Shown here: piece by piece, positions 33,188 through 63,690 of the stretch
Layout: each line of letters begins with the position of its first letter
Position numbering within the stretch: the stretch's first letter is position 1
Assembly: GCA_951406725.2 (NCBI GenBank)
Contig: OX597835.1
Span: 48,546,001-48,610,000 of the forward strand
Source of the DNA: Octopus vulgaris
Lineage: Eukaryota
DNA length: 64,000 nt
Direction: 5' to 3'
Made by a program: the position numbers and the translations under genes
Notes under the pieces: model-generated
The model's database searches: none
Told to the model about the DNA's origin: nothing
Seen by the model: the letters and a program-made list of their open reading frames with translations, nothing else

Positions 33188-33230
33188 AAATGTCCGACGA
33201 ACGGGAACGTGAAACTCTAAGTAACAGTTT
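33188..33230 (+). ncRNA. Type I hammerhead ribozyme candidate with U4C core, in a short element ending at (TA)n near 33332
   Basis: aaatgt CCGACGA acg-ggaa-cgt GAAA ct-cta-ag TA aca(g)ttt. Stems I, II (GNRA loop) and III all pair. GUA triplet. Confidence 0.7.
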
Positions 33231-33410
33231 TTCGTAAGGTTTTCGCAGCCAAAATAGAAAACCATATTGCTCTAGCCTCGGTATTCGAGTACTAATTTTT
33301 CTACCTTGCTTTGCATTTATATACTAACTCGTGTATATATATATATATATATATATATATATATATATATATATATATAATGTGGAACTATGAATGTGTT
33401 ATTCTCTCTC

Positions 33411-33447
33411 TTTTCTGTTAAAGAACGTAGGTTCGAAATATCGAAGA
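33411..33447 (+). ncRNA. Hammerhead relic in a 90-bp insertion between (TA)n tracts
   Basis: tttt CTGTTAA a gaac-gtag-gttc GAAA TATC gaag. Same layout as the 63655 motif with a degenerate core. Confidence 0.45.
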
Positions 33448-33992
33448 TTTTTCCATTTTTCATTTTAACCATATATATAAATATATATATATATATATAT
33501 ATATATATATACATACATGGGTTGCTTGTTTAAGAAATTTTCTTTTAAACTACTTGGTGTGGCGTTTTGTCTCAACTATTCGACACAATTTTCAAGTGTT
33601 TTCTACTACAGTCTCGGGGGAACCAATGCATTGTTGGTGAATTGAGAGATGGTAACTGTGTGTAAATTTACTATGTATGTGTGTGTGTGTTTGCCCGTGT
33701 TTGTATGTGTGTGTGTGTGCGTGCTTGTGTGTGTGTTTGTGTGTGTGTTTATCAAACTGCATATCATAAATATAGTTTCTTTATATCACCGTATTTTAGT
33801 GGCTTGACAAAACGTGCCCGATTGAATATGTACGATGCTTAAAATAAATACTTGGGCGGATTTGACTGGCAAAAGCTTTCTTAAGGCGGTGCCCCATCTT
33901 ATCTGTTTGTAATCCAGTAATCAAAATTAGTAAAAAAAAAAAAAGGTATATGTACCAACACACAGTTTCCAATTTCTATTAGTTACGACATT

Positions 33993-34695
33993 TGGCACAA
34001 GCACAGCAATTTCTGGGACGGGGTTGAGTCGATCACACCGAACCCCAGTGCTCAACTGGTTATTTTCTACCTCAGCATAATTCGAAATGAGAATGCCAAG
34101 ACGGCCGAAATGCGGCTGAGCACTTTGCGCTCCGTGCTAACCTTTCTCCCTTCTCGACGCCTTTAGCTTCTAATATATATTACATTCATTTATTTATCAA
34201 ACCATAAATTTTAGCAATGAGATACCAATATACATAAGCACAGGGATAACTCTGTGGTAATATGTTTGCTTACCGACCCCATGGTTCTGGGTTCAGACTC
34301 TCTACGTGACATCTTGGGCAAGTTTTTCTGCTATAGGTTCAGGCGGACCAAAACCATTTGAGTAGATTTGGCCGAAGGAAAATGAAAGAAGCACATCGTA
34401 TATGTGTGTGTGTTTGTGAGAATGTGTGCATATCTGTGTGTGTGTGACTGTGTGTGTGTGTATGTATGTCTGTTTAAGTCTGTATTTGTGTGTGTGTTCC
34501 CCGACACCGCTTGACAACCGATGTTGGTGTGTTTAAGTCCTCGTAACTTAGCAGTTTGTCAAAGTAGACCGATAGAATAAGTAACAGGCTTTAAAATAAG
34601 AAAATAAATTGTAGGGACGATTCATTCGACTAAAATGTTTCACGGTGGCACCCCAGCATGGCCGCAATTCAATGAGTGAAACAATTAAAAGGGAT
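33993..34695. mobile_element. SINE family B (minus, about 33993-34163) followed by SINE family A (plus, about 34240-34695)
   Basis: Similarity to 2376-2589 and to the reverse complement of 801-1242. Confidence 0.75.
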
Positions 34696-61399: not shown

Positions 61400-62900
61400 T
61401 TCGAAGGAACTAACCATGAGCTACAGGATCATATTCCTCAGTTTCTGACTTCAAACCAGAGCACAGATGTGTGAATGCGTGGTCTACATCAGAGACGTGG
61501 TTCCAGTCAGGTATTTGACAGGTAGTGGTTTTGCTATCATTATTATCATTATTATTATTATTATTATTATTATTATTATTATTATTATTATTATTATTAT
61601 TATTATTATTATTATTATTATTATTATTATTATTATTATTATTACTGTCATTATTATACCTGTTGTTGTTGCTGTGATTGTTGTGATTTTGTGTTGCCTT
61701 AATTTGCACCCAATTCACAACCAGAGACGTCGACGGACAACAAGGTTTTGCACCTGAAAATGTTAACAGGTGAGGTGTTATACAATTGGAAACACTGATA
61801 TTTGTAGGAGAAAAAACACAGAGCAAGTAAGCTTCTCATCTATAGGGAGAGGAATTTATGCAGAATATGCGAGGAACTCATAAATAGGATCTTTTGTAAT
61901 GCTTTGATTTTAGGGCTACCAGGGATTTGATCTGCCTTCTATTTTCTTCCCCTTCACATCATTCCATGGGCCCCGATATGTAATGTTGTTGGTCCGGGAT
62001 GCCACAGTCTCCAAACCTTTACATTTGCTTAGTTTCTCAAACGTCTTCAGAGATGGGCTTTTGTCAGCTTGGGCTGCAACTTCAATCAAAGACAGGTCTT
62101 TTCGCGTGATTTTTCACAATGAGATCTGTTGATTTGCTTATAGTCCCCGATTAGTCTGATCGCTGAAATTTCAAAGGACGCGACAGCCTGGGCGTTCTGG
62201 GCAACTTGTGTTCCCACCAGTTGTTTTTGTGAGGGATGTGTATGGAGGAGGATTGTAAGTACGGCATATTGACAGGTGTGTGTGCACTGAGTTGCCCTGT
62301 CATGCCATTACAAATATCCTGCTGGTACCTGTCTGCTGCATTCAGATATTATGTGGTCGACTCACTCTGGATGCTAACTGCGCATGCGGCTTGGTAAGTT
62401 GCTTTCATATATCAGGATTTTACACTGGAAAATGCAAGTTGGAAGCCATTGAACCTGAACAGCAATGATATACCCCTCTCTTTCTTGTTTGAGACCAGAA
62501 CATAACAGCCACCGATAAATACAGGATAGATCTACATCAGGTTTCCTGGTTCTAGACGTGCATATGCCCTGCAGTGACCTTTGCTGCCTTTTCTCCTTAA
62601 TATGTTTGGCAATGGTTTGTATTTGCTCTGCCTAATCTATTGGGGATGCGTTTTCGTCGGTTAATAGTTCGTCTGCTTACATTTCTCGCAGGTAGAGTTT
62701 CGCATTTTTTAACACTGACGGCAACATTTTGTTATTTTCATGTTTCCGAACCAGCTTTACCATCCAGTCGTTTGCTTGTTGGAGGGAGGCAGAAAGTCCC
62801 ATGATTGAATTTTTCAATGAGAGTCGAGAATGTATAAGCCCCAATCTCCTTCTTCTCCCGGGAGGAAAGATTCTATCAAGCGTTGGTGATCAGTTACACT
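61400..62900 (-). pseudogene. Decayed R4/Dong-like LINE fragments
   Basis: Minus-strand CSGLKQEREGYIIAVQ..LPT..VDHIISEC (about 62340-62510) and CSGLKSETE (about 61440-61465) match SSGLKAETEGFLIAA..HIISSC. Confidence 0.7.
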
Positions 62901-63367
62901 TGTTTCTCTAGGATCTGTTTTCAGCACCCGTTCACGGAATAAATCAAAGTGCACAATGTGAAAGCACATCTTTAATACAATGCTGAAAAAGTGCTGCTTC
63001 TGGTTTATGAAATAAAAAAATTTTCACTTGGATCTCTTGCGGGAACTGGCGCTGAAAATAGTGTTGGAAAGAATGTAACTGGTCACGAAAGATTTGATAA
63101 GACCTTTCCTTTTCTCTTTATTTGGATTACATTTTATTCTTCGATAAACCCACACAATAGTTTTATTGTTGTGGCACATCGATTTTAAACATGTGAAGAA
63201 TTTCGATTTTTACTTTAGACGACAATTCATTTGCGTAGAAAGCCTTAAGCTCAGATTGAGTACTGCATTGTGAATACACCACCTTCCCACACTTACACGT
63301 CCTCATATATATATATATTTATATATTTATGTACCTATATATATATATATATATATATATATATATA

Positions 63368-63530
63368 GGCGCAGGAGTGACTGTGTGGTAAGTAGCTTGT
63401 TTACCAGCCACATGGTTCCAGGTTCAGTCCCACTGCGTGGCACCTTGGGTAAGTGTCTTCTACTATAGCCTCGGGCCGACCAAAGCCTTGTGAGTGGATT
63501 TGGTAGACGGAAACTGAAAGAAGCCCGTCG
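63368..63530 (+). mobile_element. SINE family A, 5' half
   Basis: GGCGCAGGAGTGACTGTGTGGTAAG..GGTTCAGTCCCACTGCGTGGCACC..GAAGCCCGTCG followed by (TA)n. Confidence 0.88.
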
Positions 63531-63654
63531 TATATATGTATATATATATATATAGTCAATTCAAATAAACTAATAACATTAACAATAATAATAGACAACA
63601 AGAGGACTTGCACAAGGAATGTATTAGTTTTACGCTCAGTAAAAACAGAGAGTG

Positions 63655-63690
63655 TTTTGACGTTTCGAGCACAGCTCTTCGTCGGAAAGG
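63655..63690 (-). ncRNA. Minimal hammerhead (U4C core) in a pLTR-like element 63555-63771 inserted in (TA)n
   Basis: Minus strand: ttt CCGACGA a gagc-tgt-gctc GAAA CG TC aaa. Palindromic ACGT stem III and GUC triplet. Confidence 0.75.

Follow-up and report, generated by a model that had tools for sequence, protein, structure and literature searches.

Short hammerhead-bearing repeats in a 64-kb stretch of Octopus vulgaris DNA as probable 3' ends of several Penelope-like element families

According to Cervera and De la Peña (2014, PMC4209133), Penelope-like elements (PLEs) carry minimal hammerhead ribozymes that cleave weakly and as dimers, and the single hammerheads that number thousands per genome are 'probably related to truncated PLEs'. 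In the Hydra clade of PLEs, insertions are 5'-truncated, tandem or inverted, have optional tails and lie at (TA)n, and the CxCX5C linker, one of the clade features, has been proposed to confer (TA)n targeting (Craig et al. 2021, PMC8557442). The PLE tail comes from internal initiation by the reverse transcriptase (RT), and hammerhead mutants still insert in vitro, where cleavage required protein (PMC11167929). For O. vulgaris, a repeat annotation, which may refer to another assembly, gives 31 recently active Penelope-like families (PMC13282606); the words 'hammerhead' and 'ribozyme' are absent from its main text. In this paper we analyse a 64-kb stretch of O. vulgaris DNA (the window, G000:C22:48546001-48610000) in which short hammerhead-bearing elements lie near a PLE, PLE-W. 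We put at about 85% the probability that the elements B, C and D and the relic E are hammerhead-bearing 3' ends of separate PLE families that encode their own RT and GIY-YIG endonuclease (EN) elsewhere, likely 5'-truncated insertions made by each family's own protein. The phenomenon is already known from Cervera and De la Peña (2014) and Craig et al. (2021); the families described here are further members of it, and supplements may list some of them.

The genome searched comprises 2.8 Gb in 227 contigs. A, B, C, D and D2 denote short elements, E the Neptune-type family of a relic at 33411, and W the local PLE. First-look candidates are raw places in the genome search, not copy numbers. The copies collected number 77 for A, 23 for B, 38 for C, 53 for D and 33 for W; terminus counts are taken only from copies with a recognisable terminus, and tests for tandem repeats and retrozymes cover a sample of fetched loci.

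Coding parents of elements B, C, D and E

The elements that carry the argument are listed with the identity assigned to each.

40549..40914, plus strand: element B, the 3' end of a third PLE, of Hydra type; core at 40737, stem II arm of 70 nt, stem III ACACGUGU and cut predicted after 40825
41171..41357, minus strand: element C, direct part; core at 41313, stem III ACACGUGU, predicted cut after 41240
41359..41445, plus strand: further part of element C, 87 nt in inverted orientation derived from the C family's long 3' tail
63553..63772, minus strand: element D, the 3' end of a PLE subfamily that is older and of Neptune type; stem III ACGU, core CCGACGA at 63685 and cut predicted after 63659
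6975..7205, minus strand: D2, a diverged D-type end; core at 7116, GAAA decayed to AAAA
33380..33470, plus strand: relic E, decayed Neptune-type PLE 3' end; relic core at 33415, family core CUGUNGA

The parent of C is the most complete. The window copy consists of the last 185 nt of an element that we call PLE-C, followed by the inverted long-tail piece, and PLE-C occurs elsewhere as a tandem array with a 3,624-bp period, in which an 895-codon RT and GIY-YIG frame ends 595 nt before the hammerhead. PLE-C (L031, G000:C1:119512000-119521900, and L033, C1:60696500-60704000) is young and flanked by (TA)n. For B, 3 of 20 loci (L124-L126) continue on their upstream side into coding sequence for a GIY-YIG domain, which has a CxCX5C linker of its own, and these three are 85-88% identical continuously from the coding sequence to the B end. 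The B parent protein, which has CxCX5C, CxxC and CxH, is 25-38% identical to the W and C proteins.

The link between D and an open reading frame (ORF) emerged only with a Neptune-type query. Sequence upstream of D enters CA-rich repeats, and just one of 12 long loci (L225) reached a same-strand EN remnant. Used as a query, this remnant found 38 genome places; 14 were fetched, and 6 of these have a D or D2 end downstream. In one locus (L267) GIY-YIG coding sequence at 1-360, 55% identical to the Neptune-type frame (E 5e-33), is followed by a D end at 656-848 (78%). Over the EN, the D parent is 46-55% identical to that frame. Of 30 loci obtained with a CCHH GIY-YIG query (L237-L266, e.g. G000:C1:159738085-159741357), 21 carry an E-type hammerhead ~550-1200 nt downstream; first-look candidates for the EN of this lineage number 9,525. 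In the E parent, RT, a Cx4CxxC linker and a C-terminal CCHH GIY-YIG lie in one frame (L262), which has the CX2-5CxxC linker and C-terminal CCHH GIY-YIG by which Neptune is recognised. Like Neptune elements, the D and E parents have RT, a Cx4CxxC linker, a GIY-YIG domain with internal CxxC and two histidines, and a hammerhead in a long 3' untranslated region (UTR), the RT and linker being seen in E and the EN end in D; unlike them, the E lineage has the core CUGUNGA. By these motifs we call both parents Neptune-type, with Nematis as a possible alternative; a Naiad or Chlamys identity was rejected because the EN is C-terminal here.

The local element, by contrast, has an end of its own.

54464..57053, plus strand: full-length PLE-W unit, Hydra clade, 2,590-bp period, ending at (TA)n
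54544..56697, plus strand: PLE-W frame, 717 amino acids stop to stop, first ATG at 54571, RT and C-terminal GIY-YIG
52308..54463, plus strand: upstream tandem PLE-W copy, 5'-truncated, its 3' end forming the pseudo-long terminal repeat (pLTR) of the full copy
51354..52309, minus strand: inverted 5'-truncated PLE-W copy with a short 3' end, ending at (TA)n
56885..56960, plus strand: W hammerhead with stem III ACUCAGAGU and core CCGAAGA at 56899; cut predicted after 56949
54309 (plus strand) and 51447 (minus strand): core starts of further W hammerhead copies

PLE-W resembles the Hydra clade (PMC8557442) in its RWK and DKT in the RT, CxCX5C linker, CxxC and CxH in the GIY-YIG domain, lack of CCHH, unit of less than 3 kb, hammerhead and (TA)n ends, and the B parent resembles it in CxCX5C, CxxC and CxH, the clade being assigned by motifs. 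A Pfam search of the W frame gave no match, and PLE-W is identified by its motifs and by homologues, 836 database proteins being related to it. The 150 scored genome matches to its EN region are each ~100% identical, and we therefore regard PLE-W as very young. Like C and the E parent, it has the single ORF with RT and GIY-YIG of EN-containing PLEs. Assembled contigs of four runs, guessed to be RNA, cover PLE-W, although ends, strand and cleavage are not readable from contigs. At 56993-57050 the W tail is joined by assembled contigs whose upstream sequence differs, and there is a steep increase in depth, an indication of sibling families with the W tail in common. The inverted copy is adjoined at 51245-51307 by a probable 3' tail of an E-type Neptune element.

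PLE-C departs from the Hydra clade in several respects: it is 3.6 kb long, has RWL where PLE-W has RWK, carries two long insertions and is without the CxCX5C linker, and yet it lies at (TA)n. It shares DKT, CxxC and CxH and is 39% identical to PLE-W over the RT; we call it Hydra-like only, since the linker is lacking. Its (TA)n in 28 of 32 ends fits poorly with the role in targeting proposed for the linker (PMC8557442), and PLE-C is a natural case in which to test whether (TA)n targeting depends on the cysteine linker.

PLE-W has a distinct 3' end of its own and no notable DNA similarity to A-D or the 33411 relic. The initial annotation had described solo pLTRs, or non-autonomous elements, mobilised by PLE RT/GIY-YIG beside a candidate autonomous partner. 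Its first half is supported. The second half is unsupported for B, C, D and the 33411 relic, each of which joins the coding sequence of a different PLE family; for A no ORF link was found in 8 long loci. Since most of the short repeats are truncated tails of different PLEs, each with its own coding parent, they are likely ordinary retrotransposition debris and not passengers of the neighbouring PLE. The dense ribozyme-like motifs would thereby be explained, and tying short 'unknown' repeats to their parents aids repeat annotation.

Hammerhead-like motifs and their variants

Eleven type I hammerhead-like motifs were counted in the window, where the initial annotation had given about ten in 64 kb: three in PLE-W, four with intact cores (A, B, C and D), D2 with a broken core, and three relics. 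The layout CYGANGA...GAAA...UH, or a recognisable relic of it, was found at every place named in the initial annotation, within ~85 nt of its coordinates, and its observation of at least five element types with a type I layout is confirmed. It had also called the types unrelated in sequence, which they are not entirely: B and C have 27 nt in common around stem III at 85% identity, and the 33411 relic is related to D and D2, which are also related to each other.

A strict descriptor that allowed no bulges found no motif with stem I of at least 4 bp and two with at least 3 bp (shuffle mean 0.14; none of 100 shuffles reached two), and W, B and D escaped it. A second descriptor was adjusted once the motifs were known, so as to allow a bulge at either end of stem II and to require a palindromic stem III. 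It picked out 6 motifs, 4 of them independent (B, C, D and three W copies), whereas 300 local dinucleotide shuffles gave 0.043 on average and never more than 2. In accordance with this tuning, and with an Rfam scan of the window that gave no match at gathering thresholds and, by E-value, no hammerhead in the best 150 of 595 matches (microsatellite-like miRNA models dominate), it might be argued that the motifs are chance matches in AT-rich repetitive DNA. Monomer folding z-scores of -1.67 to +1.51, not significant against shuffles, would agree with that, as would one single, non-canonical relic at 30231. The excess over shuffles, the fact that the stems differ in sequence between five families and all still pair, and the position of each linked motif in a PLE 3' end, a known hammerhead site, speak so strongly the other way that we give chance hardly any weight; for A-E and W it is already refuted.

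The majority sequences of the families form type I layouts with a self-complementary stem III, which is ACACGUGU in B and C, ACGU in D and ACUC(N)GAGU in A and W. The self-dimers have predicted energies of -10.3 kcal/mol for B/C, -1.7 for D and -7.4 to -7.9 for A/W, and no monomer hairpin is predicted for A or B. B and C have the canonical core (C3-U4-G5-A6-N7-G8-A9, G12-A13-A14, A15.1-U16.1, H17; stems I-III) and A, D and W have it with U4C, while E (A6U), D2 and the motifs at 30231 and 3968 fall outside the type I core definition. All core bases are intact in 29 of 77 A copies, 17 of 23 B copies and 23 of 53 D copies; core changes at G5 and G8 are of CpG type (G-to-A at CpG). Within families, compensatory stem cells are outnumbered by broken ones (19 vs 90 in A, 0 vs 9 in B, 1 vs 30 in D).

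These motifs share with published minimal PLE hammerheads (PMC4209133) the type I topology, the palindromic stem III, the many families per genome, the predominance of single motifs from truncated PLEs, a bulged base after A9 in D, E and B, and a long stem II in B, C and W. They differ in an extra U directly before GAAA in W and B (window 54309, 56899 and 40737), in C4 in A, D and W and in U6 in E. We would predict weak type I ribozymes that need a partner copy, through the palindromic stem III, and perhaps also PLE protein; dimer cleavage from that stem is plausible. The extra U of W might pair with A9 and damp activity.

The E core, its register fixed by alignment with D, departs at position 6, where hammerheads almost always have A. 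Among 21 EN-linked copies, position 6 is U in 20, C in 1 and A in 0, position 7 is U in 11, A in 4, C in 4 and G in 2, and C3, U4, G5, G8, A9, A13 and U16.1 do not vary; at other loci, 15 of 17 E-type motifs have U6 and the remaining 2 have C6. A natural A6C variant is slow in magnesium (PMC3088659, PMC7151607). An A6U hammerhead was not found in the literature searched, whose coverage was limited, and the variant is perhaps already in print. The U6 core may be under selection, or it may belong to a dead ribozyme that is carried along. Young, near-identical tandem elements (W and C) and natural core variants (U4C, A6U and an extra U before G12) suit this genome to tests of what PLE hammerheads do. 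PLE hammerhead variants were reportedly treated by Lünse et al. in 2017.

Insertion structure and the origin of element A

All four short families are high-copy: first-look candidates number 1154 for C, 586 for B, 1089 for A and 1876 for D, with best genome matches at ~99%, 85-97%, 73-83% and 81-90% identity, respectively. As had been proposed, the elements abut (TA)n, the same target as the PLE; (TA)4 lies within 30 nt of the 3' terminus in 14 of 27 A, 18 of 21 B, 28 of 32 C, 21 of 32 D and 24 of 29 W ends, all five far above a background of 3.0-3.3%. Opposite-strand partners occur at 37 of 82 A, 5 of 24 B, 15 of 36 C and 9 of 33 W loci, 5' ends vary among copies, and W, B and C have alternative short and long 3' ends. 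The hallmarks of PLE insertion are thus present: partial tandem (pLTR), 5' truncation, 5' inversion and an optional 3' tail. Insertions end 40-250 nt past the predicted cut site and not at the cut. In a W-related insertion (L214, minus strand, ~1250-1400) the inversion junction lies at the centre of the stem III palindrome, which suggests template switching at the palindrome.

A sequence of events can be proposed. A tandem PLE would be transcribed, the family's GIY-YIG domain would nick (TA)n DNA, and the RT would initiate internally on the RNA, 3' of the hammerhead, at either of two sites that would account for the short and long ends of W, B and C. Synthesis would usually halt early or switch strand and leave a stub of 0.1-0.4 kb, often with an inverted piece, that retains the hammerhead because this lies 40-250 nt from the 3' end. 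Stubs would then decay, mostly by CpG transitions. Two cuts in a tandem parent would release unit-length RNA; as the insertions end 3' of the predicted cut, the template would be uncleaved, multimeric or circular RNA.

The short elements could instead be non-LTR retrozymes, replicating via self-cleaved circular RNAs from short tandem arrays. Like these (PMC7229834; bioRxiv 10.64898/2026.07.22.740005), they are short, non-coding and PLE-related and have type I hammerheads, here with a palindromic stem III, and a derivation of retrozymes from pLTRs has been proposed (bioRxiv 10.64898/2026.07.22.740005). One array, a minisatellite of 167 bp and 5.5 copies (L133:633-1535, G000:C6), is made of a decayed D end. 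Its cores are dead in every unit, and it was rejected as a retrozyme on this ground; no short tandem array whose successive units keep an intact hammerhead occurred among the fetched loci, where the other same-strand pairs are full PLE tandems and a few isolated duplicates. Unlike the 150-450 bp tandem arrays with intact ribozymes (PMC7229834), the elements are dispersed stubs that are joined to PLE ORFs in longer copies, and their ends lie well past the cut. We consider a retrozyme origin very improbable.

Element A is the one short family for which no linked ORF was found.

33100..33333, plus strand: element A, an inverted piece at ~33100-33175 and a direct 3' end with hammerhead; core at 33194, predicted cut after 33223

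In its majority form A has a 6+6-bp stem I, only part of which survives in the window copy; the genome has 1 place that fits an exact 35-nt A pattern. Most likely A is the 3' stub of an older PLE family whose coding copies are rare or lost. It is possible, though we doubt it, that some families, chiefly A, are true non-autonomous elements of ~0.6 kb or shorter that retain the hammerhead and depend on a borrowed PLE protein, for which a W-like Hydra element is a possible source. Non-autonomous derivatives of PLEs are known (PMC8557442; bioRxiv 10.64898/2026.07.22.740005), A and W have the CCGANGA core and ACUC(N)GAGU stem III in common, and many of the A insertions form compact hairpins, head to head: for 39 of 63 A motifs an inverted copy lies no more than 130 nt upstream, a query-biased figure in which both arms are counted. 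With a Hydra profile, no upstream ORF was found at the 8 long A loci or the 12 long D loci. The D parent, however, was likewise hidden behind a microsatellite-rich 3' UTR until it was found, no significant DNA match exists between A and W, and A shows the 5' ladder of truncated ends, with 1089 first-look candidates for the end against 43 for the next 210 nt upstream. A Hydra EN fragment beside an A hairpin (L057/L130) was considered as A's parent and rejected; it lies downstream of A and has its own end.

Several observations weigh against reading the short elements as truncated ends made by their own families. The shared sequence of A extends ~450 nt upstream of the hammerhead before entering a TG/TA microsatellite, and no Hydra- or Neptune-type ORF, the two clades queried, is linked to A in 8 loci with 5 kb of upstream sequence. 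The B and D parents are seen only as the endonuclease end, without a whole RT. No 5' end within 6 nt of the predicted cut was found in six families, a weak result given a biased sample and a composite A reference. A cores diverge less than their flanks (0.058 vs 0.153, non-CpG), which may reflect selection on short copies, or search bias and indel noise. Finally, trans-mobilisation between related families is possible, and the protein that made a given stub is not deducible from sequence.

A bolder combination, which we regard as rather unlikely, is that the fixed U6 of the very abundant E lineage is a still-selected core variant working only with PLE protein, with an unusual metal or as a non-cleaving RNA signal, that PLE-C targets (TA)n without the linker, and that A is perhaps a true non-autonomous element. 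If this were true, the U6 core, PLE-C and A would make the purpose of PLE hammerheads directly testable within one genome.

Possible relics and other repeats

Of three relics reported near 3930, 30201 and 33411, the last is the decayed E end described above. The other two are listed here.

3925..3980, minus strand: possible hammerhead relic with no family assigned; core at 3968, G-U-rich stem II, no stem I
30190..30245, minus strand: doubtful relic; core at 30231, G at position 17, no stem I

The sole genome match of the 30231 relic is itself (1/1), and both motifs may be chance matches.

Short tandem repeats make up ~24% of the window. Beside B and C lie two related 120-bp pieces of an unclassified repeat (38842-38965 and 40936-41051), 82% alike. 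Two dispersed families of 130-170 bp repeats resemble short interspersed elements (SINEs), and in neither was a hammerhead core seen. The first, often beside (TA)n, is found at 1083-1242, 32344-32481, 34238-34398, 60379-60520 and 63369-63530, and the second at 2102-2766, 4303-4801 and 19941-20994. Two broken copies of a non-LTR retrotransposon (RVT_1, zf-RVT) at 9651-12017 and 13992-16042 are 88-94% identical, and both have a long GAA repeat inside the frame.

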